Source: a virus
Taxonomy: Duplodnaviria; Caudoviricetes
Length of the DNA stretch: 52,569 nt
Reading direction: 5' to 3' (one strand)
IMG/VR virus record: IMGVR_UViG_3300007513_000054
Span: 1 to 52,569 of that record
A program made the position numbers and the translations under genes. This document shows positions 11,430-46,737 of this stretch, piece after piece. Position 1 is the first letter of the stretch, and each line of letters starts with the position of its first letter. Under the pieces are notes generated by a model. That model was not told the DNA's origin. It searched no databases and saw only the letters and a list, made by a program, of their open reading frames with translations.

Positions 11430-11459
11430 TTGACATTCTCCTCTCAAATATGTTATAAT
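11430..11459 (+). promoter_or_regulatory. sigma70-type promoter of RNase H
   Basis: TTGACA-N18-TATAAT with extended TG, intergenic. Confidence 0.8.
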
Positions 11460-23937: not shown

Positions 23938-24168
23938 ATGGAACAATTATTTACGGCAGTGACGATTTCATTATTTATGATGATGGGTAGTGCATTATAC
24001 GTCCTACTCTGGGACGTAATTGACAATCAAAAACATAAGCATCCTAAGCATTTAATTAATCTAGAGGAGGAAATATATCAACAAGTAATCATATTTCTAG
24101 CTAATGAAGACAAAGACAATATAACCGCATTAGTCAATAAAGCAATTTTACAATATTTAAAAAAATGA
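23938..24168 (+). CDS. Membrane-anchored hypothetical protein
   Basis: N-terminal TM segment. Confidence 0.5.
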   Translation: MEQLFTAVTISLFMMMGSALYVLLWDVIDNQKHKHPKHLINLEEEIYQQVIIFLANEDKDNITALVNKAILQYLKK

Positions 24169-24323
24169 GATTCCTATTTCTATTTTTATTACTATTAGGT
24201 GGTTGTACAACAAAACAAATATCAATAGAACCAATATCCACAAGACAGCCATTAGAAGAAAACAAGCATGAAGTGGCAGGTAAAGAAATTTATGAAGGTA
24301 TGTTAATAATTCTAGGAGAATAA
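24165..24323 (+). CDS. Small putative lipoprotein (not in ORF track)
   Basis: MRFLFLFLLLLGGC...; ATGA overlap with upstream stop. Confidence 0.5.
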   Translation: MRFLFLFLLLLGGCTTKQISIEPISTRQPLEENKHEVAGKEIYEGMLIILGE

Positions 24324-24327
24324 AAAA

Positions 24328-24750
24328 ATGAAAAAGTTCATTATAGGCCTAATATTTTTAATATTAACACAGTGCAGTTATCACGGTTGTGCGATAAAGC
24401 CCAAATATCTAGTAGAAAAATCATTACAAGAGGAGGCACAACAAGAAATACAACAACGTCAAGAAGAATGGAATTGGAAAAATCGTCATCGTCTCAGACA
24501 AGATAAAGTCTATTGGGAGAAAAGATTTGAATTACTTCCACCTAGACAAGGAACGCATAAGAAACAACTAATCACTAGAAAAAGACAATATAGAAATCCT
24601 CAATTAGGAATAGCACGAAATAGATTCAATAATAATGCCAAACGAAGAACACATATCACTCCTAAAAAACACAATGGTGTCAAGGTCCATAAAAAAAATT
24701 ATTGGTCCAAAACTACCAAAGATCGAAAGGAGGATATAGCTAATGAGTAA
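24328..24750 (+). CDS. Putative lipoprotein/secreted basic protein
   Basis: Signal peptide with Cys; K/R-rich tail. Confidence 0.5.
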   Translation: MKKFIIGLIFLILTQCSYHGCAIKPKYLVEKSLQEEAQQEIQQRQEEWNWKNRHRLRQDKVYWEKRFELLPPRQGTHKKQLITRKRQYRNPQLGIARNRFNNNAKRRTHITPKKHNGVKVHKKNYWSKTTKDRKEDIANE

Positions 24751-24931
24751 TGTCAAGTTACTACTACAAGAAACAATAAATGAATTAAAAAAATTACATA
24801 TTTTAATGAGAAACGATACAGAAGATTATCAAGAGAAATATGATTTTTTAATGAGAAGAAAAAAACGATTACATGAACATTATCTAGAAGAAGAACACCG
24901 AGCCGCAATAATAAGGAGACTAGAACAATGA
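24743..24931 (+). CDS. Hypothetical protein
   Basis: SD GGAGG. Confidence 0.5.
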   Translation: MSNVKLLLQETINELKKLHILMRNDTEDYQEKYDFLMRRKKRLHEHYLEEEHRAAIIRRLEQ

Positions 24932-25322
24932 TAGCCAGAATAGTAGCAGTAGCTACAGCCACTAAAAAAGCATTAATGCAAAATAAAAAGAAAAAACAAC
25001 GTAAAACAACCCCTGTTACATGTATTAGTGGAAAGAAAAAATCACAGACAGTAGAGGAATTACAGAAAGAAGGTGATTTCAAAGGAATAATAGATAAATT
25101 AATGTGAAAGTATCCAGACAGCAAATTTTATCCATGATAGAGAAGTATGAGAGAACCAAAATGCAGTTGTATCAGACCAAGAAAAAAGCAGAGAGAATCT
25201 ATTTGCATAATCAATTAGAGAAGTATGTCAAAATGGCACAACAACTGTGCCAACAATTGAATATTTAAAAAACCTAATAAAAACCTTGTTTTCTTTTTTT
25301 AGGTCTCCGTATGTTACCATCT

Positions 25323-25409
25323 GATACCATGCGATACTACTCGATACCATGCGATACTACTCGATACCATGCGATACTACTCGATACCATGCGATACTAC
25401 TCGATACCA
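25323..25409. repeat. Tandem repeat, 20-bp unit GATACCATGCGATACTACTC x4 plus partial
   Basis: Exact copies at 25323, 25343, 25363, 25383, partial at 25403; unit is two related 10-mers. Confidence 0.97.
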
Positions 25410-25437
25410 GTCAAGGCGACGTGCGCCCGATTTTCAA

Positions 25438-25579
25438 GTGTGCGGTATTTCATACAGTGTGCGGTATGGTAGACACTGTGCGGCTTAGTAGACACTCGGA
25501 GGTGTCTACGTGTATGATTTACTATACACTCGGAGAAGTTTTTTGTAAAAAAATTTGTAGACGTATACAAAATCATACA
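25438..25579. repeat. Degenerate ~19-bp direct repeats and inverted repeats
   Basis: (G/C)TGTGCGG at 25438/25457/25476; GTAGACACT at 25469/25488; IR GTAGACAC..GTGTCTAC 25488-25509; IR TGTATGATTT (25511)/AAATCATACA (25570). Confidence 0.8.
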
Positions 25580-25757
25580 ACTAAACACTGAGATCCTGAA
25601 AGCCTGATCCCCAGGGCTTTTAATAAATATTATTTTTCATACACACCAGGGCCCGATTCCCAATATTGGCGAGCGATACATCTGAATCAAGATATAACTT
25701 TTTGTATACAAAATTTTTTTTCCACAAAATTATTTTGTGTCAACATCAAAAAAAAGC

Positions 25758-25784
25758 TAAAGTTTCCCCCACAATTGTCGATAA
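25758..25784 (+). promoter_or_regulatory. sigma28 (FliA)-like promoter copy 1
   Basis: TAAAGTTT-cccccacaatt-GTCGATAA. Confidence 0.8.
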
Positions 25785-25856
25785 TTATAAGTAGAGGCGC
25801 AAGTAATATCAAAACACAAATGCAAAAATTAATTTCAAAAAAAGTGAAAATAAAGC

Positions 25857-25883
25857 TAAAGTTTTCCGCATTTGTGTCGATAA
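25857..25883 (+). promoter_or_regulatory. sigma28-like promoter copy 2
   Basis: TAAAGTTT-tccgcatttgt-GTCGATAA. Confidence 0.8.
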
Positions 25884-25986
25884 TTATAAGTAGAGGCGCA
25901 AGTAATATCGAAACACAAACCAAACATTCTAGCAGAAAAATCAAAAAATCTGAAAAATTTATTTTCCGGATTATTGAAAATAAAGC

Positions 25987-26013
25987 TAAAGTTTTTGGAT
26001 ATTGTGTCGATAA
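25987..26013 (+). promoter_or_regulatory. sigma28-like promoter copy 3
   Basis: TAAAGTTT-ttggatattgt-GTCGATAA, 30 nt before ORF 26043. Confidence 0.85.
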
Positions 26014-26042
26014 TTATAATATAGCAAGTAATTGGAGATAGT

Positions 26043-26387
26043 ATGACATTAGACCAACTTTTATTGAAAAACAGCATAGACTTGGAAACGTTAGCAAAAA
26101 ATTTAGATCTTGATAAAATTTTCGGAGAATCTAACGAGTTGGAACGTGATGATAATTCGGAGACTGATTTAGACTTGACAGATTTTGAGATAGTAGAAAC
26201 CCAACATGGGTTCGACGTTTCGTTTACTGATTTTGATGGAAAAATTTTTCTTGCATTTTTTAAGACTATCAAAGCAAGTGAAAATTGGCTCGATATGATG
26301 ATGGGAACGTCGGACTTTGTATCTGATAATACTTTGACAGAATATCAGAGTAATCTATCAGGAAAACATTTTTACAATAATAGCTAA
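26043..26387 (+). CDS. Acidic early hypothetical protein
   Basis: Promoter plus SD GGAG; D/E-rich. Confidence 0.7.
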   Translation: MTLDQLLLKNSIDLETLAKNLDLDKIFGESNELERDDNSETDLDLTDFEIVETQHGFDVSFTDFDGKIFLAFFKTIKASENWLDMMMGTSDFVSDNTLTEYQSNLSGKHFYNNS

Positions 26388-26395
26388 AAAAAAGC

Positions 26396-26422
26396 TAAAG
26401 TTTTCGGCTTAACTGTCGATAA
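26396..26422 (+). promoter_or_regulatory. sigma28-like promoter copy 4
   Basis: TAAAGTTT-tcggcttaact-GTCGATAA, intergenic. Confidence 0.85.
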
Positions 26423-26454
26423 TTATAATATAGCAACTAACACTGGAGAATATC

Positions 26455-26658
26455 TTGAAACTTTCAGAATTGATACAAAAATTACAAACTGCGGAACGTG
26501 AACATGGGAACGTGGAAGTAGAGTTTAACATAGCCGCCGATCCGGAGTCTACTATGCAAATAGGGGACGCCTGTGCAAGTGATTTAATTAAGATTGAATC
26601 ATTTGATTGGAAAGGATCTACGATATTAAACTTGGATTTAGGATTTTCAAAATTCTAA
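26455..26658 (+). CDS. Small early hypothetical protein
   Basis: TTG start with SD GGAG; 'MKLSELIQKLQ...HGNVEV' is a common phage small-protein start. Confidence 0.65.
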   Translation: MKLSELIQKLQTAEREHGNVEVEFNIAADPESTMQIGDACASDLIKIESFDWKGSTILNLDLGFSKF

Positions 26659-26677
26659 AATAATTTGAAAATAAAGC

Positions 26678-26704
26678 TAAAGTTTTCGGCAATTGTGTCG
26701 ATAA
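26678..26704 (+). promoter_or_regulatory. sigma28-like promoter copy 5
   Basis: TAAAGTTT-tcggcaattgt-GTCGATAA, intergenic. Confidence 0.85.
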
Positions 26705-26747
26705 TTATAATATAGCAAGTGATTAGAAAATTGGAGAGAATTACAAC

Positions 26748-27185
26748 ATGCCATTAAAAGTTAGCGTAAGTAGAGTTGGATCGAAAAATGCTGGTAAACC
26801 TTACTCATATCTCACCGGCGTAGAACGTAAAGTTGGATACTGTAAAGGTGGACGATTTAACACGCCTGAGTTGGACCAAGCTAGGGTAACATTTAACGGT
26901 GCCAAAAATCGTAATAAAGATATTACACCGTTAACTGAGGATCGGGAAGCCATCTTTGATATGTATTATCAAGCATATATGACAAGTTTGGAGACTGGTA
27001 TTACACACCGTGTGGCAATGGCTAAGCCTAAAAAAGCTGGCGGATTGTGGACCTTGTCTAATCTTAAAATTGTCAAGAAAGGTGAGTCGGTCAACCCTAA
27101 GCCGAAAAATGCTAAAAAAGCTGAAAAACAGTTGGAACTATTTGAGGAACCAAAAGTAGATGATTCCCAATTGGAGTTATTTTAA
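26748..27185 (+). CDS. Degenerate HNH-like protein
   Basis: 'TP...E.IF.MY..A....ETGITHRVAM.KP...GGLW..SNLKI' follows the phage HNH scaffold without the catalytic His residues. Confidence 0.55.
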   Translation: MPLKVSVSRVGSKNAGKPYSYLTGVERKVGYCKGGRFNTPELDQARVTFNGAKNRNKDITPLTEDREAIFDMYYQAYMTSLETGITHRVAMAKPKKAGGLWTLSNLKIVKKGESVNPKPKNAKKAEKQLELFEEPKVDDSQLELF

Positions 27186-27392
27186 TTGAACAAAATTAAA
27201 TTTAGATCAAAATCAGGAAGTCAGGAAGTAACCTTATGTTATGCAAACCGTTCCGCTGTTTATAAACGTAGGGCGGAACGTACCAAGGAACATTATCTAA
27301 CGGATATGGATTTCCATAGATTGATTGATAATTTTTGGAATAATAAACGTTGGGATAAGGTTAGAGTTTTTAACAGTGGAGACGTAAGTTAA
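27186..27392 (+). CDS. Hypothetical protein
   Basis: TTG start, SD GGAG. Confidence 0.45.
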   Translation: MNKIKFRSKSGSQEVTLCYANRSAVYKRRAERTKEHYLTDMDFHRLIDNFWNNKRWDKVRVFNSGDVS

Positions 27393-27655
27393 TGATAAGA
27401 TTGATAACTGGAGGATTCCTAGTATTAGGGTCCGTTGGTGGAATGGAGATGGGATCCATGGGACCGGGAATGGCGATAATGTTTGCCGTTCCCGGACTGA
27501 TGGCAATTTGGTGGGCCTTGTTAGATGGTACTATTCACAGATTAGCCGGAGTAAAAAAATTATGGTAGAAATGATGATGTTAATTGGAATAGGAATAATT
27601 ATTTTTGGTGGACCGATTGTATTATTTTCACCGAAAAATAAATCGTAATTAGTGC

Positions 27656-27682
27656 TAAAGTTTTCCGGGTTTGTGTCGATAA
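27656..27682 (+). promoter_or_regulatory. sigma28-like promoter copy 6
   Basis: TAAAGTTT-tccgggtttgt-GTCGATAA before ORF 27715. Confidence 0.85.
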
Positions 27683-27714
27683 TAGTAATATAGCAACAAA
27701 AAGGGATTAGTGAA

Positions 27715-28395
27715 ATGACAATTCAGAAAAGTAAACATTGGCCATTACAATTCCCAAACGTTAACCAACAGGAAAAGGAAATGCCAGAAAATACGGAACG
27801 GGATAAAATGATTGATGGTTATTATAACAATTTGACCCATACCAAAGGTGATGATGGTGAGAGAAGGGTTGAGGAATTTTGTGCTAAAAATAATTGTCTA
27901 ATCTCAAGACCAACTAACCAATCTTTTCCATATGATTTAATGGTAGATTATATGGCCGAATATACCTTAAAGGTCCAAGTTAAACAAGTTACATTGTTAG
28001 GGACTGGTTTGGTAAATGTTCCATTAACAAATAGAATCAATGCCGGATCGAAAAGAAAAGGAATTGGTAATTCCCATAGCTATTTGAATACCGTTGACGT
28101 TATGGCTGTGGTTGTTACCGATGATAATGGCGAGGCAGTATATGATGAACCATTTTTTATATCCTGTAATACCTTAACAAATGATTTGGACGTTCCAACT
28201 ACTCAGGGAACTAAAATGTTCCAAACTGATAAGTATGTTCCTAGCTCAACGAAAGCCCCTTTAATCAATCAATATACTTGGGCTAACCTGATTAACAGAC
28301 TTAAGGAAAAGGATAAGGAATTAGAAAATGAATACTCCGAATTAAAGGATATTTTCAATTCCTTTACCGCTTTCCTAAATCGAAAATATAGCTAA
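27715..28395 (+). CDS. PD-(D/E)XK-family endonuclease
   Basis: 'KGDDGE..V', 'PYDL.VD', 'KVQVK'. Confidence 0.7.
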   Translation: MTIQKSKHWPLQFPNVNQQEKEMPENTERDKMIDGYYNNLTHTKGDDGERRVEEFCAKNNCLISRPTNQSFPYDLMVDYMAEYTLKVQVKQVTLLGTGLVNVPLTNRINAGSKRKGIGNSHSYLNTVDVMAVVVTDDNGEAVYDEPFFISCNTLTNDLDVPTTQGTKMFQTDKYVPSSTKAPLINQYTWANLINRLKEKDKELENEYSELKDIFNSFTAFLNRKYS

Positions 28396-28419
28396 AGTTT
28401 TCGGCTTAACTGTCGATAA
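28393..28419 (+). promoter_or_regulatory. sigma28-like promoter copy 7
   Basis: TAAAGTTT-tcggcttaact-GTCGATAA; first TAA doubles as the upstream stop codon. Confidence 0.85.
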
Positions 28420-28433
28420 TTATAATATAGCAA

Positions 28434-28673
28434 GTGATTAAAAAGAGTATGAATTTTACAAACGGACAAATGGTCAAGTCCTATTCTGACCAAGTTTATC
28501 GGATAGTTGGAATAGATAGCAATATCTATAAAGTAGAGCATGGAATTGATGGTGAAATTAGTCATGGATGTGATGATGATTTTTTACCACTTAAATGGAA
28601 TGATCCGGTCTATGATAGTTGGTTAACCGCCAAATTTAATTACAATTACAATTTAGTATATGGAAAACATTAG
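28434..28673 (+). CDS. Small hypothetical protein
   Basis: Directly after promoter copy 7; start may be the internal ATG. Confidence 0.55.
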   Translation: MIKKSMNFTNGQMVKSYSDQVYRIVGIDSNIYKVEHGIDGEISHGCDDDFLPLKWNDPVYDSWLTAKFNYNYNLVYGKH

Positions 28674-28866
28674 GAGAGAAATGAAAATGCAAGAACTACT
28701 GGACCTACTCGAAGGAATTACGACTACTGTGGACGACCTGGCGACACAAATACCCAATGCGGATGATGCCCATGAGCAGATACAACTGGCTGAAATGATA
28801 GAACGGGAAATGTCTGATGCCCGATCTATTCTGCGGGTTATGAATCTTATTCAAAAACAAAGTTAG
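28660..28866 (+). CDS. Helical acidic hypothetical protein
   Basis: SD AGGAG before internal ATG. Confidence 0.55.
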   Translation: MENIRREMKMQELLDLLEGITTTVDDLATQIPNADDAHEQIQLAEMIEREMSDARSILRVMNLIQKQS

Positions 28867-28879
28867 GGGAGATTATAAT

Positions 28880-29284
28880 ATGGGTTATTTAAGACGGATT
28901 AAGAATCGGGAACGTAAAATTGAAAAGGCTAAAAATCGTAAACGTTATAACACACCGAAGGAAACTTCAGTAAGATCACGTTTGAGAAAAGCCGCTGTGG
29001 CTAAACTAAAGCAAGAACGGGAAGCCCTAGCCCAACGTGAAGCTGATATAGCGGCACAGGAAATGGCTGATTATAAAGAGGTCAATGACCAAGTTAGGGA
29101 AAATCCAGAAGCCTATGAAAATTTTCTGGAAACTGAAGGAATTGAAGTTCCTCAGATATATACCGATCACCGTGGAGAGGAAGAGGAAAATGACACCGAT
29201 ACAAAAGATAACGGATCCGATGCGGATGGTGAGGACGTTGGGTCCACATCCGAGCCAGATGATAGTCAAGGCGGTGGAGAATAG
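28880..29284 (+). CDS. Hypothetical protein, basic N-terminus and acidic C-terminus
   Basis: SD GGGGAG. Confidence 0.6.
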   Translation: MGYLRRIKNRERKIEKAKNRKRYNTPKETSVRSRLRKAAVAKLKQEREALAQREADIAAQEMADYKEVNDQVRENPEAYENFLETEGIEVPQIYTDHRGEEEENDTDTKDNGSDADGEDVGSTSEPDDSQGGGE

Positions 29285-29426
29285 TTTAGCTATAGGTGGC
29301 AGTTGGATCACCTCTGTTAAACAGGTGATGGATGATAATGATCGAACATGGACACCTGGATGTGGTGACATTTTAGATCAAGATATTATGGTTATAGTAT
29401 TAAGAACATTAAGGAGAGAATTTTAA
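29190..29426 (+). CDS. Hypothetical protein overlapping the upstream gene
   Basis: SD GAGG before ATG 29190; stop coupled to next gene. Confidence 0.45.
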   Translation: MTPIQKITDPMRMVRTLGPHPSQMIVKAVENSLAIGGSWITSVKQVMDDNDRTWTPGCGDILDQDIMVIVLRTLRREF

Positions 29427-30172
29427 TGGGACTACCGAATGGTAACCTAGCTAAACTTACAATTAAAGATTGTAAAGAAAATGTTGGACAATTCAGTGAT
29501 CCAAGTAAAATGCCTGGATTGTCTTGGGGAATTCCAATTGATTATTGTATCACTGGCTCCCAACTTATTGACGTTGAAGGTAGCACCTGTCATGGGTGCT
29601 ATGCCGACAGTGGTGCATACATTTGGGAAAATACTCAAAATGCTTATGAACGTCGGCACCAAGCCTACATTAAAGATCCATTACTGTGGGTTCAATCCAT
29701 GATCCATTTTTTCCATGAAAGCACAGTGATGGCTAAGGAACCATTCTTTAGATTTTTTGATAGTGGTGACATTCAATCACTAAAAATGCTAATGGATATT
29801 GCCACTGTGGCATATGCTTGTACCCATATAAATTTCTGGGTTCCTACTAAAGAATATCAGATATATCAGGATTATCTAAAGGTGGCAGAGCCTCCAAATA
29901 ATATGATAATTCGGGTATCGGCACCCATGAAAGATACAGTCCTTAAATCTGATAAATATGAATGGTCTAGTACCACTTATACTACGGAAAAGTTTGATAA
30001 AATGAAGGACGAAGAGGATTGGTTTTTCTGTCCGGCATCTAGTCAAAAAAATTCTTGTGGTGATTGTAGGGCATGTTGGGATCCGGATGTACCGGTAGTG
30101 GTATATAAGTATCATGGTGCCAAAAAGTATAATACCTCTAGGGAATTATTACAAATTGAGAGGGCCGCTTAA
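29426..30172 (+). CDS. GP88-like Cys-rich (radical-SAM-related) phage protein
   Basis: 'SKMP', 'C.TGS......STCHGCYA', 'FRFFDSGD', 'CPAS.Q...CGDCRACWD'. Confidence 0.75.
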   Translation: MGLPNGNLAKLTIKDCKENVGQFSDPSKMPGLSWGIPIDYCITGSQLIDVEGSTCHGCYADSGAYIWENTQNAYERRHQAYIKDPLLWVQSMIHFFHESTVMAKEPFFRFFDSGDIQSLKMLMDIATVAYACTHINFWVPTKEYQIYQDYLKVAEPPNNMIIRVSAPMKDTVLKSDKYEWSSTTYTTEKFDKMKDEEDWFFCPASSQKNSCGDCRACWDPDVPVVVYKYHGAKKYNTSRELLQIERAA

Positions 30173-30396
30173 TGACAGTTAAGGATTTACGAAAGTATTT
30201 GGATGGTTACAAACCAAATGATGAAATTGTAGCTTTATGGTGGGATAAGGATTCCTACTTTGAGTATAATTTTACAGATGAACAGTGGAAAACGATAGTT
30301 GATAAGACTGAGGAATATAGTTTTGATGGTATTCATGAAATTATAACCTCAGAAATAGTAGATATTGCAACGGATTTAGGATATAAGGCAGAATAA
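30172..30396 (+). CDS. Hypothetical protein
   Basis: TAATG coupling. Confidence 0.6.
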   Translation: MTVKDLRKYLDGYKPNDEIVALWWDKDSYFEYNFTDEQWKTIVDKTEEYSFDGIHEIITSEIVDIATDLGYKAE

Positions 30397-30498
30397 TGGA
30401 TCCAGTGATAGTAGTTTGTATAGCGGTTTGGATAGTATCGTCAGTAGCGGCAGTGGTTGTAATTGTTAAGAATGGACATGATACAGGAGGAAAATAAG

Positions 30499-30714
30499 AT
30501 GGGAATCGTACCTACACAAAAAAGATCGGAATTGGAATTAGAATTAGCTAAAATCTTTGGGAAAAGTAGACCGGCTACGATTATGGCTGGCTCCTGTATG
30601 ACCTGCGATACTAATGATATTGTGGAAGCAGATTTTAAGGACGATATATCAATTAAAGAATATCAAATTTCTGGCCTCTGCCAATCATGCCAGGATGATG
30701 TGTTTGGTATTTAA
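30499..30714 (+). CDS. Small Zn-binding phage protein
   Basis: 'CMTC...FKDDISIKEYQISGLCQSCQD'; SD GGAGG. Confidence 0.7.
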   Translation: MGIVPTQKRSELELELAKIFGKSRPATIMAGSCMTCDTNDIVEADFKDDISIKEYQISGLCQSCQDDVFGI

Positions 30715-31036
30715 TTAAGATAGGAGGTATAAGGTGAAATTTGTACGAAAGAAAACATTTGACCAAAAAATAGATGAGGCTCCTTTGCCTACTGGTCTTA
30801 CATTGAAACAGAGGGGTAAAAAACGTAAACCGATTAAGAAATTAACAACATGGGAAAAAATTGTGAAGTGGATTAGCGAACATTTTCTAGGTGGAGGGAG
30901 AGGATAGTAATGGATATAGCACAAATGATAATTATGGGTATTATTATAGTTACGACAGGTGTAATGGCGTATACTATAGGACATTTTAATGGTTTTATGC
31001 AAGGTATGAATAAATGTCAAAAGATTTATTCACCTA

Positions 31037-31231
31037 ATGCCAATTCAACTGATGCTTAGATACTTTTTAGGAGGTTCCATTGCGTTACTTGCGTTTATTT
31101 TTAACGTGCTGGCTAGTTTGGGTAATATCCCGGCTCTTTTCCTTGGTATATGGGGCTTGTATATTATGACAGGACCCATAGTTGATGGTAGCTTATGGAA
31201 ACAAATGAAAAGGATTTATTATGAAAGTTAA
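31037..31231 (+). CDS. Small membrane protein
   Basis: Two hydrophobic segments. Confidence 0.45.
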   Translation: MPIQLMLRYFLGGSIALLAFIFNVLASLGNIPALFLGIWGLYIMTGPIVDGSLWKQMKRIYYES

Positions 31232-31392
31232 TATCCCATATCAATACTCAGTAGCAGAAATTTCAGAACAGATTCAGGAAGATATTCTATCCTATTTTGA
31301 ATCATTAAACGAAAATATCGAATACTACACGGTATATGAAAAATTTAAGGACGATTTATGTCAAATCGTAGTTGATAATATGGAAAAATTAG

Positions 31393-31590
31393 ATGATTAA
31401 CACATATGGTGTCCAAACAATGGATATATATGATTATTATCGTGCCTATATGGAAGTACAGGCAGCAAAACGTGTACAAAGGGTTGAGGCAGTTACAGAT
31501 TCTATGAAAAATGCCTTAGATCCGAGAAAAAATAAAAGTCATCCACTAGCAGACAAAAAGTGGGGGAGTAATTTAGATGTCCGAGCTTAA
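31393..31590 (+). CDS. Small protein with YjfB-like C-terminus
   Basis: Ends 'KWGSNLDVRA'. Confidence 0.5.
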   Translation: MINTYGVQTMDIYDYYRAYMEVQAAKRVQRVEAVTDSMKNALDPRKNKSHPLADKKWGSNLDVRA

Positions 31591-31810
31591 AAAATATGCG
31601 GTAAGAATAATTTGGCCTTGTTATATTACAGTAAGTGCCGATACTGAAAGTCAAGCAATTGCTCAAGGCATGGAAATGGCTGATGATTTGTTTGAAACTT
31701 CCACTATTAGGCCGTACGTTGATTCAGTAACGGAAATCGAAAAAAAGTTTCAAAATTTAACTAAAGTTTCCGATGAAACTGTCGATAATAATAATATAAG
31801 CGGAGATTAA
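31577..31810 (+). CDS. Hypothetical protein
   Basis: 'ITVSADTESQA' resembles the common phage 'VEAxxEEEA' motif. Confidence 0.55.
   Translation: MSELKKYAVRIIWPCYITVSADTESQAIAQGMEMADDLFETSTIRPYVDSVTEIEKKFQNLTKVSDETVDNNNISGD
31762..31788 (+). promoter_or_regulatory. sigma28-like promoter copy 8
   Basis: TAAAGTTT-ccgatgaaact-GTCGATAA in the 3' end of ORF 31577, before ORF 31812. Confidence 0.8.
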
Positions 31811-31811
31811 G

Positions 31812-32039
31812 ATGTTTGATTTAGCAATTCCAACTGAAAGGGAAATTGATCTTGATAAATTACGATTAGAATATGTGGAAGCTCTACTTTCTAATATGGA
31901 TTATAAAGATTTATTGGAAACATTTAGATCTACCATGTTTGAACACCTAAAAACTTTGTCCGAAGATGAATTATACGAAGAAATTGAAAAATGGGGCTTT
32001 GGATATATTTTTGACCAACAGGAGATTATAGAATGTTAA
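31812..32039 (+). CDS. Small acidic protein
   Basis: SD GGAG; 'LSEDELYEEI'. Confidence 0.6.
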   Translation: MFDLAIPTEREIDLDKLRLEYVEALLSNMDYKDLLETFRSTMFEHLKTLSEDELYEEIEKWGFGYIFDQQEIIEC

Positions 32040-32239
32040 CTACAGATGTCCATGATAACAGTACCAAATACCAAATTATGCGGGATATGTTATGTGATGC
32101 CGAATATGAAAATATACAGTGGAGTGATATTTATGACATTCTAATGGATGGTTGTCAAGGCTATAGAAATATGTCGGATGAAGAAATTGAAGATTTATAT
32201 GAAATCCATTTTGATGAACCTTTTGACTCGGAGAAATAA
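32033..32239 (+). CDS. Small acidic protein
   Basis: SD AGGAG; 'MSDEEIEDLY'. Confidence 0.6.
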   Translation: MLTTDVHDNSTKYQIMRDMLCDAEYENIQWSDIYDILMDGCQGYRNMSDEEIEDLYEIHFDEPFDSEK

Positions 32240-32240
32240 A

Positions 32241-32477
32241 ATGTCCGATTTAATTGATTCCCTAACTATGGTTTCCTCTAGAATTTCAGAGATTTTAGAG
32301 GAATTTACTACTGAATTAAGTGGTACCAATTCCCAAAAACTAGAAGAAATGTTGGAAGATCTAATTGACATCGTTACTGATTTGGATCAAATTGCAGAAT
32401 TGGATGAAAATCCGCCAAAAATAGATATAAATGAAATAATCTATGATTTAGATGAGGAGGATAACTTATGGGATTGA
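32241..32477 (+). CDS. Small, very acidic protein
   Basis: SD GGAG before ATG 32241. Confidence 0.6.
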   Translation: MSDLIDSLTMVSSRISEILEEFTTELSGTNSQKLEEMLEDLIDIVTDLDQIAELDENPPKIDINEIIYDLDEEDNLWD

Positions 32478-32607
32478 TATTTGATGCCATAAAAGGTTTT
32501 ATTGCAGTATTGGGAATGATCTGTGGTACTTTGTGTGTTTCTTTGATAGGATTATATTCTATTTTTTCTCCTGAATCTGCTGAAAAGTTATTTCAACGAC
32601 TACAGGA

Positions 32608-32823
32608 ATGGGCAAATGGGGAATGAAATTTATACAATGGTTGTTATTCCATATAACCTTTTTAACAGGATTATTTTTTCTTTATTCTGTTAGGTTTTTT
32701 TTGGATTTAGTATTTTTATGGGCCAATATCATTGGATCACATGATTTAATTCAATGGTGTTCTGATGCTGAAGATTCCATAATAGCTTGGTTAGATGAAT
32801 TGGATGATGATGATGAAAACTAA
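32608..32823 (+). CDS. Small membrane protein
   Basis: Hydrophobic core, acidic tail. Confidence 0.45.
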   Translation: MGKWGMKFIQWLLFHITFLTGLFFLYSVRFFLDLVFLWANIIGSHDLIQWCSDAEDSIIAWLDELDDDDEN

Positions 32824-32988
32824 GAAAAGGAATAAGATTATTAGGAGAATTACCAAAGTATCCCATGCGATCGGGGTTAATCTTTGGGATGTTATCCCTA
32901 GTGATGTGTGGGGTGGTGAATTAACCAAAGTAGTAGAGAAGTTACAGGAAAAAAAGACGATTGGATTTAAGTATCCACGAAATTAGCC

Positions 32989-33018
32989 TTGACAGGGGCT
33001 GGTTAAAAATGTTATAAT
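32989..33018 (+). promoter_or_regulatory. sigma70-type promoter
   Basis: TTGACA-N18-TATAAT with extended TG, intergenic. Confidence 0.8.
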
Positions 33019-33049
33019 ATAGATGTCCTACGCTGGAGGAGATAGTATA

Positions 33050-33418
33050 ATGGTAGATGTTAAGATTGGTATTGCTAAATACTGTTTTAGTCAAATTTAT
33101 GAATTAGCTACTGAGGCTGTTGATTTATGTGAATTAGGTAATGATGCAGATACATATTCTATAATGAAGTACGTGGATAAGATTGATTCTTATACAGAAA
33201 CTATAGATTCCTTAGTGAGTGATATAGTTAATGATAATGATTCAACTGGTGAAACAGTTATAAATCAGGAAAATGTAGATATTATTATAAATGAAGATAA
33301 AAAAACCTCAAAACAGGCTTATGTTGATGAATTAAATAAGACCTATGATGATTTTATAGAATATAGTCGTCAGGAAGATATGCGTAAAACTTTTAATCAA
33401 GGTGAGGGTGATGGCTAG
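33050..33418 (+). CDS. Acidic hypothetical protein
   Basis: SD GGAGG before ATG 33050. Confidence 0.6.
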   Translation: MVDVKIGIAKYCFSQIYELATEAVDLCELGNDADTYSIMKYVDKIDSYTETIDSLVSDIVNDNDSTGETVINQENVDIIINEDKKTSKQAYVDELNKTYDDFIEYSRQEDMRKTFNQGEGDG

Positions 33419-33608
33419 AATTTATAAACAAAGTTTATTGGTGGAGTTTAGGAATACTGAACCTTTTATTTATGACTTGGAATCTGAACAACCAATTACA
33501 ATGGATAGAATAGTTGAGTATTTCGTTAAGGTTGAGGATTGGAATGAGGAACGTGATAGCCTAACCTTATTAGACGCTTCAACTGTAATTGATTTAGATA
33601 AAAAATAA
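33402..33608 (+). CDS. Hypothetical protein (start probably the internal ATG)
   Basis: SD GAGGG. Confidence 0.55.
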   Translation: MRVMARIYKQSLLVEFRNTEPFIYDLESEQPITMDRIVEYFVKVEDWNEERDSLTLLDASTVIDLDKK

Positions 33609-33611
33609 AGC

Positions 33612-33638
33612 TAAAGTTTTCGGCATAACTGTCGATAA
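33612..33638 (+). promoter_or_regulatory. sigma28-like promoter copy 9
   Basis: TAAAGTTT-tcggcataact-GTCGATAA, intergenic before the AAA+ gene. Confidence 0.85.
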
Positions 33639-33673
33639 TTATAATATAGCAACTAAATGGAGAATAATTAAGA

Positions 33674-34900
33674 ATGAAATCTTTGAATCACAATCATATG
33701 ACCTTTGTTAAATGTGCTTATAGTCATTATGATAAAGATGAATTAACCAAAGCTGAATTGCAAGTTATTACAGATACTTATGATGTTAAAAAACCGGGTT
33801 GGATTCAAAGACCTGAATTTAGAACATCTGCTGGTTTGTATAAATTACCTATCGATGGTAAATTGCCAGAAGCATTAAAAGCGAAAGAAGGTGTCGAAGG
33901 AATTAATGGAGATTTTCCATTAGAAACTTATAATAACATTGTACCAATGAAAAAAGGACAAATGCCAGTTACTACAAAAATAGTTCCACAAGTAGTTGAA
34001 GAATCTCAACAACAGGCAGAAATAGTGGAAATACCAAAAGAGGATGTAAATTTAGTTCCTGATAAATCTGAGAAGTATGTTCCATTTGGAAATTCTAAAG
34101 ATATTCTTAGTATAATCAAATCGGAGATATTTTATCCTGTTTTTATTACAGGTCTTTCTGGTAACGGTAAAACGTTGATGGTTGATCAGGCTTGTGCCAG
34201 ATCAAATAGAGAATTGGTTCGTGCTAACATTACTATTGAAACGGATGAAGATGATTTGCTTGGTGGTTTTAGATTGATTAACGGCAATACTGTCTGGCAC
34301 AATGGTCCAGTAGTAGATGCTATGGAGAGAGGTGCAATACTTCTCCTAGATGAAATTGATTTAGCATCAAATAAAATTATGTGTTTGCAACCCGTATTGG
34401 AGGGTTCAGGTGTCTATCTTAAAAAAGTTAATCGGTGGGTTAAACCCAAACCTGGTTTCAATGTTATTGCTACTGCTAACACAAAGGGTAAAGGGTCGGA
34501 GCATGGTCAATTCATTGGAACTAACATTCTTAATGAGGCGTTTCTTGAAAGATTCGCTATTACGTTAGAGCAGTCCTATCCTACAGCCGTTACTGAAAAG
34601 AAAATTTTAAGATTAGAATTGAAGGAGTTGGAATATGATGATAAGTTTTTGGATCGGCTTGTTAATTGGGCTGACATTGTTCGTAAAACTTATGATGATG
34701 GTGGTCTTGATGAAGTAATTTCAACTCGCCGCCTTGTTCATATTGTTAATGCGTTTAAGATATTTGGAAAGGAAGATAAGGCCATCAATGTTTGTATCTC
34801 AAGATTTGATGATGATACGAAGGCCGCATTGAGTGATCTTTATTCCAAACTTGAAGAAAAGCCAGTTGAAGAGGAACAGACTGAAGAAGTACCATTTTGA
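33674..34900 (+). CDS. MoxR/CbbQ-type AAA+ ATPase (phage 'CobS-like')
   Basis: Walker A 'GLSGNGKT', 'ETDEDDLLGG', Walker B 'LLLDEID', 'ATANTKG', 'ISTRRL'. Confidence 0.92.
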   Translation: MKSLNHNHMTFVKCAYSHYDKDELTKAELQVITDTYDVKKPGWIQRPEFRTSAGLYKLPIDGKLPEALKAKEGVEGINGDFPLETYNNIVPMKKGQMPVTTKIVPQVVEESQQQAEIVEIPKEDVNLVPDKSEKYVPFGNSKDILSIIKSEIFYPVFITGLSGNGKTLMVDQACARSNRELVRANITIETDEDDLLGGFRLINGNTVWHNGPVVDAMERGAILLLDEIDLASNKIMCLQPVLEGSGVYLKKVNRWVKPKPGFNVIATANTKGKGSEHGQFIGTNILNEAFLERFAITLEQSYPTAVTEKKILRLELKELEYDDKFLDRLVNWADIVRKTYDDGGLDEVISTRRLVHIVNAFKIFGKEDKAINVCISRFDDDTKAALSDLYSKLEEKPVEEEQTEEVPF

Positions 34901-34984
34901 GATCTGGACAAAAAAATGTTTCGGGCGAAACAAAAGCAAGATATATCAATGGGCCAAGGAATGAACCTTCCATAAGGAGATAAA

Positions 34985-37492
34985 GTGAAGTATACTCAAG
35001 AGCAAAAACAAGTATTGGCCAGATTGTTGGCTACTGAAAACATTACAGTGGAACATAGAAATGTCTCCACAGCAATGTTTGATGTTCAAAATCGTACATT
35101 ATTACTCCCTACTTGGGACTCTATGCCTGAGGATGTTTATGATATGCTAGTAGGGCATGAAGTTGGGCATGCCTTGTTTACTCCGACAGATATGGATGAT
35201 CTACAAACTAAGATCGATGGTATTGATTCGGATCATCCAGGCCGTGTCAAGACCTTGTTTAATATAGTGGAAGACGCCCGGATTGAAAAGAAAATGAAAC
35301 GGAAATTTCCTGGTTTAAGGAGAGACTTTCATAATGGCTATAAAGATTTTTTGCAGAAAGGATTGTTTGGTGATCCTGAAAGCCTTAATAGGAAATTGAT
35401 TGATAAGATCAATATACATTTTAAGTGTGGTTCTTTAGGACCACAATATGAGTTTAGTCCAGATGAACAGCAGTTGATTGATAGAATAGAAAAGGTGGAG
35501 ACATTTGAAGATGTGGCTGGTATAGTTAAAGATTTGTATGAGTTTGTATTGGGTGATGTACCTGATATGGCAGATGATATGTTAATGCAACAGCAAATGG
35601 AAGAAAGAGGTGATTGTAATGGCTGGGAAGAGGAGACACAGAAGTCTAATTCGGGATCTGGAACGGATTCTGCTGATGGTGACGAAAAAGATACCACCGA
35701 TTCGGATGGGACTGATGGTGACAGAGAACGTGATGGAGATGATACTAGAGAGTCTACACAATCTGAGAAATCAGGAAGTGGCAAACAAGAGATGGAGGAT
35801 GAAAAGGGAAAGGAATCTAAAAAATACAACTCCAAAGTCGGAGGTAGAGGAAATAGAAATAACTTAGAAGACCAATTTAAGTCTGATACACAAGATGCTA
35901 TGGATGATTTTATAGAATCTAGTTATGATCCGACTATGTTACCAGATATGGTTGTTAATATCCCTAAGGTGGATTCTAATAGGTATATAGAGAATTATTC
36001 ATCCGTTTTATCGAATCTGGATGAGTATTATCACGAAAAGATTTATACGGATAAATGGTTTGTTAGAGCGTTGATGGATAATGACATTTCAAAAGAACAA
36101 TATAATCAGGCTTTGGTTGATGGTTATAAATCTTGGAAAAAGTCTGTTAATTCTTCTGTCAATTTTATGGCTAAAGAATTTGAAATGAAAAAATCTGCCG
36201 ATCAGTATGCTAGGGCATCTGTTAACAAAACAGGTACTTTGAATACTAATAAGATTCACCAATACCGATATAATGAAGATATATTTCGTAGGATTACAAT
36301 TTTACCTGATGGTAAAGATCATGCGATGATACTTGTAATTGATTGGTCTGGATCTATGGATGCTAGTATTAGTAACACTATTCATCAAGCTATGACATTG
36401 GTATTATTTTGTAAAAAAGTTAATATACCATTTGAAGTTTATTGTTTTAGTGATAATCCAGGGGCGTATCGTGATGTTATAAAGCCATTACAGCAGAAAG
36501 ATTATGAGGTAGATGATTTATACGTGGACTATTTTGTTATGCGTAATATGTTTTCTTCCCGAATGACTACCAAAGAATTGGAAAGATCAATGACATATTT
36601 TTATGCTATGTCTAATGGATTTAGTTATGGAGGATTAGAGAGTGCTTATGGTATAGAATTGAATTATGGATATGCAAGACATTTAGTGCCTACTGACTGG
36701 TCTTTGTGTGGTACACCTCTTAATGATTCATTGATTATAATGAAAGATTATTTGGAGAGGTATCGAAAGGATAATAGAAGTACCATTATCAATGTGATTC
36801 TTTTGACAGATGGTGATTCAGCAACTTCTATTCTCAAAATTACTGAGGATGATGAAATTGCTCATAATGCTTCTGATATTGGATATTCTGGGTATGTACA
36901 GTATGATGATTCGGATGAGACAAAGGAATATTATAGAGAAAAACTATATGTTGATGCTAAGATTGCAAATTTTTGTCATTCTAATGTCAATGTGAGGTTG
37001 AAAGATCCATATTCTAATACCACTGAATATATTTCTCCTAGTTCTGATCGTCAAGGTGTTTATAGAACTAGCTGGTATAGCACGGAGCATAATAATATGA
37101 CTAATTCTTTAATTAGATCATTAGGAAATATACCAAGAGTTAATGTTGTTGGATTTTTCGTTGCGAATGGTAAATATAATGTTAGAAATGCTGTTTCAAC
37201 TCATTTCTTTTCAAGGCGTGACCATGGGCATGTTGAAAAATATGATGAAATGATGAAGGATTTTAGAAAGTCTAAATACTTAGTTAATGAGGAACATGCT
37301 GGATATGATATATTCTTTGTTCTATCAGGTGGGTCTGATTTAGAATTGGAAACAGGTGGTTTAGATGATGATTTGAAAGGAGAATCAAAAAGACGATTGA
37401 CCACAGCATTTAAGAAACATAGTAAAGCCAAATTACAGAGTCGTGTATTTTTAACTAAATTTATTGATTATATTTCAAAGGAGAATTATTAA
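34985..37492 (+). CDS. VWA-domain partner with N-terminal HEXXH metallopeptidase-like domain ('CobT-like')
   Basis: 'HEVGH', 'NIVEDARIE', acidic linker, MIDAS 'DWSGSM', 'GTPL', 'LTDG'. Confidence 0.9.
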   Translation: MKYTQEQKQVLARLLATENITVEHRNVSTAMFDVQNRTLLLPTWDSMPEDVYDMLVGHEVGHALFTPTDMDDLQTKIDGIDSDHPGRVKTLFNIVEDARIEKKMKRKFPGLRRDFHNGYKDFLQKGLFGDPESLNRKLIDKINIHFKCGSLGPQYEFSPDEQQLIDRIEKVETFEDVAGIVKDLYEFVLGDVPDMADDMLMQQQMEERGDCNGWEEETQKSNSGSGTDSADGDEKDTTDSDGTDGDRERDGDDTRESTQSEKSGSGKQEMEDEKGKESKKYNSKVGGRGNRNNLEDQFKSDTQDAMDDFIESSYDPTMLPDMVVNIPKVDSNRYIENYSSVLSNLDEYYHEKIYTDKWFVRALMDNDISKEQYNQALVDGYKSWKKSVNSSVNFMAKEFEMKKSADQYARASVNKTGTLNTNKIHQYRYNEDIFRRITILPDGKDHAMILVIDWSGSMDASISNTIHQAMTLVLFCKKVNIPFEVYCFSDNPGAYRDVIKPLQQKDYEVDDLYVDYFVMRNMFSSRMTTKELERSMTYFYAMSNGFSYGGLESAYGIELNYGYARHLVPTDWSLCGTPLNDSLIIMKDYLERYRKDNRSTIINVILLTDGDSATSILKITEDDEIAHNASDIGYSGYVQYDDSDETKEYYREKLYVDAKIANFCHSNVNVRLKDPYSNTTEYISPSSDRQGVYRTSWYSTEHNNMTNSLIRSLGNIPRVNVVGFFVANGKYNVRNAVSTHFFSRRDHGHVEKYDEMMKDFRKSKYLVNEEHAGYDIFFVLSGGSDLELETGGLDDDLKGESKRRLTTAFKKHSKAKLQSRVFLTKFIDYISKENY

Positions 37493-37689
37493 TGTCATAT
37501 GTATGTGATGTGGAGGCGGTTCCTGAACGTGAAGGATATGAAGAAGTTACAGGAACAATGATGGAAATTCATAAGTGTGATGATTGTGGTTTTCATATTG
37601 GTTTTGATGTGTCGTATTTGGAGCAAGTAGAAGAAATTGTAATGGAATGTCCGAGTTGTGCTGAGGTAATTTATACTTATGATGAATAA
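37492..37689 (+). CDS. Small acidic zinc-ribbon protein
   Basis: CDDC and CPSC pairs. Confidence 0.6.
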   Translation: MSYVCDVEAVPEREGYEEVTGTMMEIHKCDDCGFHIGFDVSYLEQVEEIVMECPSCAEVIYTYDE

Positions 37690-37978
37690 GGAGGTAGATA
37701 TTTTGAGTGCTACGTATGCAGAATTGGTTAGATTGTTGGAAAATAGTATTTGTAATATAGAATTTATAAAGGCAGATGGAAGTCAAAGAAAGATGACTTG
37801 CACATTGAATCCATTTACAGAGGAGATGGAAGTGTTAGCAGATGATTATAATAATTCAACTAAAGAAAGTATTACAGTATGGGATTTAGAGAAGAAAGAT
37901 TGGAGATCTTTTCGTAAAGATAGATTGACAAAATGTACTGTTACCACTTCAATATTGGAGGTAGCAAGTGGAGCTTGA
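37679..37978 (+). CDS. SH3-fold WYL-like protein of T4-like phages
   Basis: 'F.KADGS.R.M.CTL', 'VWDLEKKDWRSFR'. Confidence 0.8.
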   Translation: MMNKEVDILSATYAELVRLLENSICNIEFIKADGSQRKMTCTLNPFTEEMEVLADDYNNSTKESITVWDLEKKDWRSFRKDRLTKCTVTTSILEVASGA

Positions 37979-38552
37979 AGAAATTTATAAACGAGGTCAA
38001 AAGGCTACTTTAGAGAATGAACCTTTAATTTCTGGTATTGATACGTCTTATGCTCGTTCAATGTATTATGTGGATCTTTGGAGAGATTGGTACGCCAATC
38101 TTTCCGATGTTCTTCGGCATGATTATATGTTTCAAGAACTTCCAGAGAAATTTCGTACTACTAATAATACTTTATGTCAAAGTGCATTGGAGTATTTTGA
38201 TGAAGATTTTGCTAGAAAGAGATGGAATATAATTGATCCTCCTTCTTTAGAAGAGGTAAAGAAGGATAATGAGAAAAATAATTTTACAAAACCTGTAAAA
38301 AAAGTTAAAGTTTCTAAGAAAGCTGTCGATAATAATAGTATAACAGCCGCACAAGCGTTTGCTGAAATAAATAGTCTAGTTGATGAATTGGAATATCATG
38401 AGAAGAAGTATTATGAGGATAATGATCCTGAGATTTCTGATTATGATTTTGATATGAAGTTAAAGAGATTGGAAGAATTAGAAAAACAATTTCCGGAATT
38501 CAAACAAAGTGAATCACCTACTGAACGAGTAGGGAGGGGGGATTTGAAATGA
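37968..38552 (+). CDS. Protein with C-terminal NAD-dependent DNA ligase domain Ia-like segment
   Basis: 'HEKKYYEDNDPEISDYDFD....L.ELE.QFPE....SPTERVG'. Confidence 0.7.
   Translation: MELEEIYKRGQKATLENEPLISGIDTSYARSMYYVDLWRDWYANLSDVLRHDYMFQELPEKFRTTNNTLCQSALEYFDEDFARKRWNIIDPPSLEEVKKDNEKNNFTKPVKKVKVSKKAVDNNSITAAQAFAEINSLVDELEYHEKKYYEDNDPEISDYDFDMKLKRLEELEKQFPEFKQSESPTERVGRGDLK
38306..38332 (+). promoter_or_regulatory. sigma28-like promoter copy 10 (intragenic)
   Basis: TAAAGTTT-ctaagaaagct-GTCGATAA. Confidence 0.7.
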
Positions 38553-38764: not shown

Positions 38765-38794
38765 TTGACAGCTGCCATTTGGATATGTTATAAT
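38765..38794 (+). promoter_or_regulatory. sigma70-type promoter
   Basis: TTGACA-N18-TATAAT with extended TG, intergenic. Confidence 0.8.
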
Positions 38795-41780: not shown

Positions 41781-42127
41781 TACCTTTGAAAATAGCCTTG
41801 ACAATTGGGGCTATATATGTTATAATATGTACAATTGGATGTTCTGAAGGATTTGAATATGGATGGACTTGGGGAATAACAAAAGATGATGGGGAGAGAG
41901 GTACAGGAAAACTTAAATGGAAGGCATATGAAGTTCGGGTTGATGATGTTTTAACATCTGTTGATGGTTCAGAAATAATTATACCTGCTGATCCACACAA
42001 AGATTGTAAACATGGTCATTATGTTGATCCTTATACAAAAATAGAATATTGTTTGCCAGAAAATTTTAGAAATATTAATACATTACATTTATACAGGGTA
42101 ACTAAAATACATGACTTAATTAATTAG
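41777..42127 (+). CDS. Hypothetical exported/lipoprotein-like protein
   Basis: ATGA overlap; hydrophobic N-terminus ending 'TIGC' coincides with promoter sequence. Confidence 0.45.
   Translation: MIPLKIALTIGAIYVIICTIGCSEGFEYGWTWGITKDDGERGTGKLKWKAYEVRVDDVLTSVDGSEIIIPADPHKDCKHGHYVDPYTKIEYCLPENFRNINTLHLYRVTKIHDLIN
41798..41826 (+). promoter_or_regulatory. sigma70-type promoter, nearest recognisable promoter upstream of the flagellin cluster
   Basis: TTGACA-N17-TATAAT with extended TG. Confidence 0.7.
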
Positions 42128-42136
42128 GAGGATATC

Positions 42137-42343
42137 ATGAAGATTCATTCTTCATCGCCAGAGATAGCTAGAACGTTTGATAGGTCAAAAGAACAACAAG
42201 TTCTCATGTCTAATATGGCATCTAGGGCTCATGTTAGAACTGAGTTGGCTACTCATGAAAGAGAAAAACACGATGTTAGTGTTGCTTCCAATATTTCACA
42301 AGATGTGTCAAAGATTGGAGCCACTTTAGACGTTAAAGCATAA
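42137..42343 (+). CDS. YjfB-like (putative motility) small protein
   Basis: SD AGGAGG; ends 'KIGATLDVKA'; adjacent to flagellin. Confidence 0.55.
   Translation: MKIHSSSPEIARTFDRSKEQQVLMSNMASRAHVRTELATHEREKHDVSVASNISQDVSKIGATLDVKA

Positions 42344-45491: not shown

Positions 45492-45501
<10 letters not shown>
44791..45501 (+). CDS. PD-(D/E)XK exonuclease of T4-like phages
   Basis: 'YPSITTVL', 'RGSALH', 'AGRVDCI', 'IIDFKT', 'YF.Q...Y'. Confidence 0.9.
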
Positions 45502-45566
<65 letters not shown>

Positions 45567-46707: not shown

Positions 46708-46737
46708 TTGACAAATGGGTATATTATATGTTATAAT
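46708..46737 (+). promoter_or_regulatory. sigma70-type promoter of gp33-59-32, overlapped by a 14-bp inverted repeat
   Basis: TTGACA-N18-TATAAT. Confidence 0.8.

Follow-up and report, generated by a model that had tools for sequence, protein, structure and literature searches.

The flagellar sigma factor sigma28 (FliA) recognizes promoters for which the Escherichia coli consensus is TAAAGTTT-N11-GCCGATAA, and this recognition is conserved across bacteria. A phage gene that uses this system has been described in Enterobacter prophages, in which the flagellin gene fliC_P is reported to be expressed through host FliA while TldR represses the host fliC (10.1101/2023.11.30.569447). Among marine T4-like phages, the annotation of phage Melnitz used sigma70 promoters, taken as early, and a T4-type late motif, and no middle promoters were detected (PMC9004378). 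Here, we describe a bipartite motif, TAAAGTTT-N11-GTCGATAA, that is repeated ten times in the IMG/VR virus record IMGVR_UViG_3300007513_000054 (Duplodnaviria; Caudoviricetes). The window analyzed is this whole record of 52,569 nucleotides, which has 32.7% G+C and is estimated to be 29% complete. Judged by the two boxes, their spacing and orientation, their distance to start codons, their conservation in relatives and their matches ahead of bacterial flgM and flagellin genes, the ten sites belong to the sigma28 promoter class, as an earlier reading of this DNA from its sequence alone had proposed.

The ten-copy motif is real and far beyond chance. A motif scan of the whole window found ten exact copies, all on the + strand (Table 1), and this rescan agrees with the sequence-only reading on their positions, on the invariance of both 8-mers and of the 11-nt spacing, and on the variability of the spacer. 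No exact match occurred in 100 dinucleotide shuffles of the window, and the pattern read backwards, as a control, gave 0 forward and 0 reverse matches. Allowing up to 3 mismatches added just two sites, at 4072 (+) and 42383 (-), a number within chance (shuffle mean 1.46), and the motif class is therefore all-or-none. Across the ten copies, the 16 core bases have 0/160 deviations from the column consensus, compared to 40/110 in the spacer (Fisher p = 1.5e-18, core versus spacer), 52/200 in the 20 nt upstream and 50/200 in the 20 nt downstream. An A-rich tract lies upstream of the copies. Directly 3' of the motif is a T in 10/10 copies, so that GATAAT is present in every copy; TAATAT begins 3 nt past the motif end in 7/10, and TATAAT follows the motif in five copies, the count given previously.

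The earlier statement that the motif differs from the sigma28 consensus by one base is borne out, with agreement at 15/16 core bases and identical spacing. The -35 element TAAAGTTT, including its TAAA core, is exact in all ten window copies and in 28/28 sites when relatives are included. The -10 element is GTCGATAA in 10/10 copies, which matches 7/8 bases of GCCGATAA and keeps the CGA core, and the 11-nt gap between the 8-mers is present in 10/10 copies and kept in relatives. The form found in the phage also occurs in bacteria. We searched one genome per species, for 185,579 species, with the phage 20-nt form GCTAAAGTTT-N11-GTCGATAAT and found it exactly in 55 bacterial genome stretches, compared to a chance level of about 1 match as estimated for equiprobable bases rather than from shuffles. 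The matches include six Moritella and six Photobacterium genomes, as well as Butyrivibrio, Oscillospiraceae, Gallionella and Geobacter. A first open reading frame (ORF) of at least 60 aa begins within 400 nt downstream in 51/55 stretches, and Pfam identified these ORFs as FlgM (15), flagellin (3), hook/rod (2), FlaG (1), chemoreceptor (1) and FlhD (1), such that approximately 23/51 are of flagellar or chemotaxis type. The T variant of the -10 element, GTCGATAA, thus stands before bacterial flgM and flagellin genes. Because an identical sequence heads bacterial flagellar genes, the motif is, by sequence, a genuine sigma28 promoter.

A motif scan of the genome and its relatives had been suggested as a check, and in addition to the ten exact copies in the window it showed that both boxes are kept in related contigs. 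Scanning metagenomes recovered eight related contigs, which align to window positions 24080-34902 at 70-99% identity, and one unrelated contig of 54% G+C. Among the 28 distinct sites in the window and the eight related contigs, down to about 75% identity, both 8-mers persist, and the only core position to vary is the final A, which is T in 3/28. The spacer and flanks have been exchanged almost completely in L398 and L403, the contigs most distant from the window, and some sites in diverged relatives have TATATAGAGTA or TATATAGTATA in place of the downstream TAATAT but keep the two boxes. The persistence of the boxes through divergence of the spacer and flanks points to selection for the bipartite element rather than to recent copying alone. 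The promoter class nevertheless has a narrow distribution around this phage. The extended motif GTCGATAATNNTAATATAGCA had 0 matches in IMG/VR. A scan of 160 loci (1.72 Mb) of wider T4-like relatives gave 2 matches with no more than 2 mismatches, and five large records of such relatives had 0-3 motif matches each; this near-absence indicates a promoter class specific to this lineage. In GenBank phages, megablast with positions 25000-34000 found no match, and a 60-nt promoter query found only matches with E >= 2.

The related contigs also show that the repeats can mark the end points of gene gain or loss. Contig L399 lacks positions 27697-28375, which contain the PD-(D/E)XK nuclease-like gene between copies 6 and 7, and carries in their place a hybrid cassette whose upstream flank is that of copy 6 and whose downstream flank is that of copy 7. 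The indel is thus bounded exactly by copy 6 as the left end point and copy 7 as the right end point. Metagenome contigs in two runs (X6, X10) join position 27696 to 28880. As in the PeSL cassettes of T4-like phages, a cassette repeated among the small ORFs of a variable region serves here as an indel end point; the stem-loop terminator joined to a sigma70 early promoter that characterizes PeSL cassettes is absent. None of the 12 terminator-like hairpins in the window adjoins a motif copy. The best reading of these features is that the promoters sit on cassettes of approximately 50-70 nt that may also serve as recombination points.

The arrangement of the copies relative to genes is promoter-like for the majority. 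All copies are co-oriented with the genes, on the coding strand, and either fall in very short gaps between genes or overlap the ends of genes. Seven of the ten end 23-43 nt 5' of a start codon; the sequence-only reading had placed most copies a few tens of nucleotides before a start codon, which holds for these seven and fails for the copies at 25758, 25857 and 38306. Six of the seven have a Shine-Dalgarno sequence of the GGAG/GGGA type, and the seventh (28393) has an ATG with a weak AAGAG. Copies 1-3 (25758-26013) are in tandem, spaced 99 and 130 nt apart. As products of copies 1 and 2 we considered small RNAs and rejected them: the predicted folds were no better than those of shuffles, and an Rfam search of the window found tRNA only. 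The block downstream is variable and, besides small genes, holds a GP88-family gene, the PD-(D/E)XK nuclease-like gene and a CobS-like gene (33674-34900) followed by an 835-aa phrog_459 gene (34985-37492). A protein atlas search returned nothing usable for the 114-aa and 145-aa products behind copies 3 and 5. Copy 10 just precedes the DNA-ligase-Ia-like C-terminal part of ORF 37968-38552, and the next gene begins at 38549.

Table 1. Positions of the sigma28-type promoter copies and other features in the window.
Feature	Position	Strand	Remarks
Sigma28-type promoter copy 1	25758-25784	+	First of three tandem copies; no credible ORF downstream
Sigma28-type promoter copy 2	25857-25883	+	No ORF ahead of copy 3; downstream 30 nt nearly identical to those of copy 1
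Sigma28-type promoter copy 3	25987-26013	+	29 nt from end to ATG of 114-aa ORF 26043-26387; GGAG Shine-Dalgarno
Sigma28-type promoter copy 4	26396-26422	+	32 nt from end to TTG start of 67-aa ORF 26455-26658
Sigma28-type promoter copy 5	26678-26704	+	43 nt from end to 145-aa ORF 26748-27185
Sigma28-type promoter copy 6	27656-27682	+	32 nt from end to PD-(D/E)XK-like 226-aa ORF 27715-28395
Sigma28-type promoter copy 7	28393-28419	+	Overlaps stop codon of upstream gene
Sigma28-type promoter copy 8	31762-31788	+	Within 3' end of ORF 31577-31810; 23 nt before 75-aa ORF 31812-32039
Sigma28-type promoter copy 9	33612-33638	+	35 nt before CobS-like AAA+ gene 33674-34900
Sigma28-type promoter copy 10	38306-38332	+	In frame inside ORF 37968-38552
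Sigma70-type promoters (six)	984-1013, 11430-11459, 32989-33018, 38765-38794, 41798-41826, 46708-46737	+	
Flagellin gene	42380-43210	+	Full-length, D0/D1 only, 276 aa; no sigma28 motif upstream
gp33-like late-transcription coactivator gene	46761-46997	+	Behind sigma70-type promoter at 46708
gp59 gene	46994-47593		Follows gp33-like gene; T4-type context
gp32 gene	47598-48518		Follows gp59 gene; T4-type context

A separate set of promoters in the window is of sigma70 type. Six perfect sites of the form tagccTTGACA-N17/18 with an extended TGnTATAATat share flanks, have 12/12 consensus bases with the TG, and precede the primase, RNase H, gp33 and other genes. This class is interleaved with the sigma28-type class. 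The ten motif sites are not among the best 60 of the 68 sigma70-like sites in the window, in line with the previous view that conservation falls on the bipartite element and not on a sigma70 -10. We also scanned for the T4 late motif TATAAATA and drew nothing from it, as its 8 occurrences on the + strand and 4 on the - strand are at chance level (9.7 expected per strand).

The same motif forms arrays in other uncultured phages. It precedes small genes in G001, G002 and G004 and in contigs L441 (11 copies within 5 kb), L456 (8 copies), L412 (5 copies) and L428 (5 copies), all from phages with no detectable gp32 or CobS homolog. The sites in these arrays are co-oriented, each ahead of a small gene with a Shine-Dalgarno sequence. 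A search for named relatives of array-bearing G001, G002, G004, L441 and L456 found none. The convergence of these phages on one motif fits a shared host factor. In addition, no sigma70-family gene was detected in the complete array-bearing genomes G001 and G027. The sequence-only reading had called for a search of the phage for a sigma factor other than gp55; models for Sigma70_r2, Sigma70_r4, TIGR02937 and FliA_WhiG had no match in the window, which represents 29% of the genome, and the FlgM domain had no match in the window either. In G004, a complete 183-kb unrelated phage, an exact motif copy directly precedes the gene for a 97-aa protein (L405:1447-1740, -) whose match to FliA/WhiG sigma factors is confined to region 4 (NF005809, E = 2e-9). 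Small region-4-like proteins are also found in array-bearing phages G022, G025 and G026. We speculate that such a region-4-only protein might be a decoy for the anti-sigma factor FlgM.

The window encodes a flagellin. Its Pfam scores are 43.1 bits for Flagellin_N (cut-off 26.6) and 47.3 bits for Flagellin_C (cut-off 23), and its profile matches solved flagellins over positions 8-276. The gene stands behind a sigma70-type promoter rather than a sigma28 site. At E <= 1e-5 the flagellin has 235 homologous protein clusters; the best 120 of these are 73-100% identical and come from metagenome-derived sources, while the flagellin has no match in 50,697 GenBank phage records. Flagellin-bearing contigs of 97.6 kb and 135 kb are also known. 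Ten IMG/VR contigs of up to 61 kb carry the gene (68-87% identity) and are T4-like sisters of this phage, in which flagellin (72-87% identity) is better conserved than gp32 (54-60%). Directly upstream of flagellin is a 68-aa ORF (42137-42343, +) with a strong ribosome-binding site and no family match; in one sister contig, L543, a homolog (42% identity over 50 aa, tblastx) likewise stands ahead of flagellin. Phage flagellin was also found in L533/L544 (8.5 kb, assigned to a Chromatiales metagenome-assembled genome, MAG) and in L545 (6.7 kb, from a Pacearchaeota MAG). L533 carries trypsin-like peptidase, gp59 and gp32 genes as well, and L545 was checked for flagellin only. These contigs look like phage DNA in wrong bins.

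Scans of species genomes with the flagellin found only two short, phage-like MAG contigs. The flagellin profile scored 20 bits in the Pirellulales genome that contains a relative of the ammonium transporter gene amt, compared to 82-83 bits in a Moritella and a Butyrivibrio genome; in a sample of 401 genomes of one phylum, the best score was 116.6 bits. Because a flagellin can serve only a cell that has a flagellar export apparatus, the host of this phage is very probably flagellated and would then normally have FliA.

On the evidence above, a FliA-type sigma factor reading the sites is the best explanation, and that factor is likely the host's. Taken as a whole, we consider it somewhat probable that the ten sites are sigma28-class promoters, most likely read by host flagellar sigma28, that lie on recombination cassettes. 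From the observed motif identity, conservation, geometry, bacterial equivalence and indel, we infer promoter activity, start site, sigma identity and expression time as follows. TAAAGTTT would serve as the -35 element, with GTCGATAA as the extended -10 element. Transcription by RNA polymerase with a FliA-type sigma factor would begin approximately 6-9 nt downstream, inside the conserved TAATATAGCAA, giving predicted 5' leaders of approximately 15-35 nt that end in the GGAG ribosome-binding site. Each site would head a short transcription unit within the variable small-gene block. Host sigma28 is favored because one phage has consensus-perfect sites for both host-type classes, sigma70 and sigma28, because the boxes equal bacterial promoters instead of forming a drifted phage-specific motif, and because a phage flagellin only makes sense in a flagellated host. 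The sequence-only reading had proposed early timing for these genes and had tied infection to flagellated cells. Since replication and late-transcription genes are behind sigma70-type promoters, at most the accessory block would be conditional on the flagellated state.

Several observations weigh against this explanation, and some of them speak for others. In many cells little host sigma28 is available and FlgM sequesters it, so that reliance on it would be risky for a lytic phage. Copies 25758 and 25857, with no credible ORF behind them, and the intragenic copy 38306 do not share the distance to a start codon. The ten flagellin-bearing sister contigs have no motif at up to 2 mismatches, which shows that flagellin does not always come with the promoter class. 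Of 20 runs, one is of RNA (share 0.07), and its contigs over 28521-32000 cannot show starts or transcription. The perfect invariance of the 16 bases would be more usual for the sites of a dedicated phage factor than for those of a bacterial regulon, array-bearing G002 encodes a diverged 365-aa sigma70-family protein, and a phage sigma gene may lie in the 71% of the genome outside the window. These last three points are consistent with sigma28-class promoters read by a FliA-like sigma factor of the phage itself, which would be encoded outside the window and made from a sigma70-type promoter, implying a cascade of sigma70 early, sigma28-like middle and gp55/gp33 late transcription. A separate consensus sigma70 class driving gp33, primase and RNase H in the same genome would suit such a cascade, as would the lack of recognized middle promoters in marine T4-like phages (PMC9004378). 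However, neither the window nor the parts covered of the ten sister contigs contain a sigma gene or domain, and the sites of a co-evolving factor are expected to drift, whereas here the boxes and spacing equal those of bacterial flgM promoters. The promoters of SPO1 gp28 and T4 gp55 have drifted from the bacterial consensus. Phages without detectable shared core genes, two of them complete and without a detectable sigma gene, converge on the motif. We regard a phage-encoded reader as unlikely.

Two explanations dispense with sigma28 altogether. One is that the sites are sigma70 promoters whose -10 is GATAAT or the TATAAT/TAATAT further downstream, and that a MotA-like phage activator binds TAAAGTTT. 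The presence of GATAAT in 10/10 and TAATAT in 7/10 copies leaves a sigma70 -10 formally possible, a further point against host sigma28, and the phage is T4-like; T4 middle promoters consist of an activator box and a sigma70 -10. This model does not account for the invariant GTC before GATAAT, which together form the sigma28 -10 element, or for the identical 20-mer that heads bacterial flgM. Diverged relatives that replace TAATAT keep both boxes, the ten sites have no TTGACA-like -35 hexamer at 16-18 nt before the -10, and MotA_activ has no match in the window, which is weak evidence because the genome is partial. Activated sigma70 promoters are therefore improbable in our view. The other explanation, that the repeats are binding sites for a phage protein or pure recombination cassettes without promoter function, would fit the indel end points that they mark, the two copies without a gene behind them and the copy inside an ORF. 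It is difficult to reconcile with the location of all copies on one strand, the fixed distance to ribosome-binding sites in 7/10, the conservation of two boxes around a variable spacer and the identity of the sequence to bacterial flagellar promoters, and we consider it very improbable.

The remaining contents of the window place these promoters in their phage context. It encodes a gp61-type primase, T4 RNase H, ThyX, an ammonium transporter, a CobS-like AAA+ protein, Hsp20, gp33, gp59 and gp32. The gp32 is about 50% identical to gp32 of cyanomyophages and of Pelagibacter phage HTVC008M, and DNA of this stretch is present in marine and seawater metagenome runs from 14 studies, with three DNA runs (X1-X3) covering more than 90% of it. 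The gene content, the kinship of gp32 and the marine runs therefore identify a marine T4-like phage of a sparsely sampled lineage. In IMG/VR, gp32 has only three close contigs as relatives, all short; CobS relatives reach at most 56% identity and primase relatives at most 37%, and a 1137-aa protein of the window is found in one contig, which was already among the known relatives. The closest bacterial relatives of the ammonium transporter gene (15612-16874, +) are in Planctomycetota (62-68% identity) and Desulfobacteraceae. A single tRNA-Thr (UGU) gene (45492-45566, +) lies between a PD-(D/E)XK_1-like gene and gp33.

Together, the ten sigma28-type promoters and the phage's own flagellin suggest that part of its expression may be tied to host flagellar regulation. 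If so, a class read by sigma28 would be a third mode of expression in marine T4-like phages, beside the sigma70-type early and T4-type late modes described for them (PMC9004378). Expression of the accessory block would depend on the flagellated, motile state of the host, linking phage infection to bacterial behavior at sea. The host search for an abundant group of uncultured phages would be narrowed to flagellated bacteria with FliA. The bolder proposal is that a lytic marine T4-like lineage, which carries its own flagellin, has put its whole variable block under the host flagellar sigma factor and that sigma28 takeover is a widespread phage strategy. In this proposal the phage flagellin, made from its sigma70-type promoter, might act on the flagellar export checkpoint, such that FlgM leaves the cell and sigma28 is freed for the phage promoters. 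One speculative route is that flagellin titrates the chaperone FliS. We hold this proposal tentatively and with some doubt; if it is true, infection would be coupled to host motility by a strategy that has so far gone undescribed. Since bacteria share sigma28 recognition, the idea lends itself to simple in vitro and reporter assays.

Comparison with known systems shows which parts of this arrangement have precedents. Bacterial class-3 flagellar promoters (FliA, SigD, WhiG) have the same -35 element TAAAGTTT, an 11-nt spacer and the -10 form GxCGATAA. Unlike them, the sites described here are ten invariant copies in a lytic-type phage and stand before non-flagellar genes, while the phage flagellin has none. 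The sigma cascades of SPO1 (gp28, gp33/34) and T4 (gp55/gp33) resemble this phage in having distinct promoter classes in one genome, and gp33 is present here as well. However, promoters of the SPO1 and T4 phage sigma factors are not known to resemble any host alternative-sigma consensus, whereas here the match to a host-type consensus is near-perfect and the window has no extra sigma gene. The middle promoters of T4, which depend on MotA/AsiA, are likewise a third promoter class with an upstream box and an A/T-rich -10, but they differ from the sites here in box sequence, in spacing and in the invariant GTCGA, and no MotA domain was found in the window. With the PeSL cassettes of T4-like phages (PMC4122927), the sites share the character of short repeated regulatory cassettes between small genes of a variable region that act as exchange points; they differ in that the promoter is of sigma28 type instead of early sigma70 type and no stem-loop is present. 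The Enterobacter prophages with fliC_P also encode a flagellin, and there the phage gene uses the host FliA/sigma28 program as one lysogenic-conversion gene of a temperate phage of enterobacteria. Here, in contrast, a class of ten promoters stands before unrelated genes in a marine T4-like phage, and the flagellin is not behind such a promoter. The sequence-only reading knew of no T4-like phage with a sigma28 regulon, and our literature searches agree, having found no report of a phage sigma28 promoter class or of a ten-promoter sigma28 block in a T4-like phage. Use of host FliA by a prophage flagellin gene is, however, already known.

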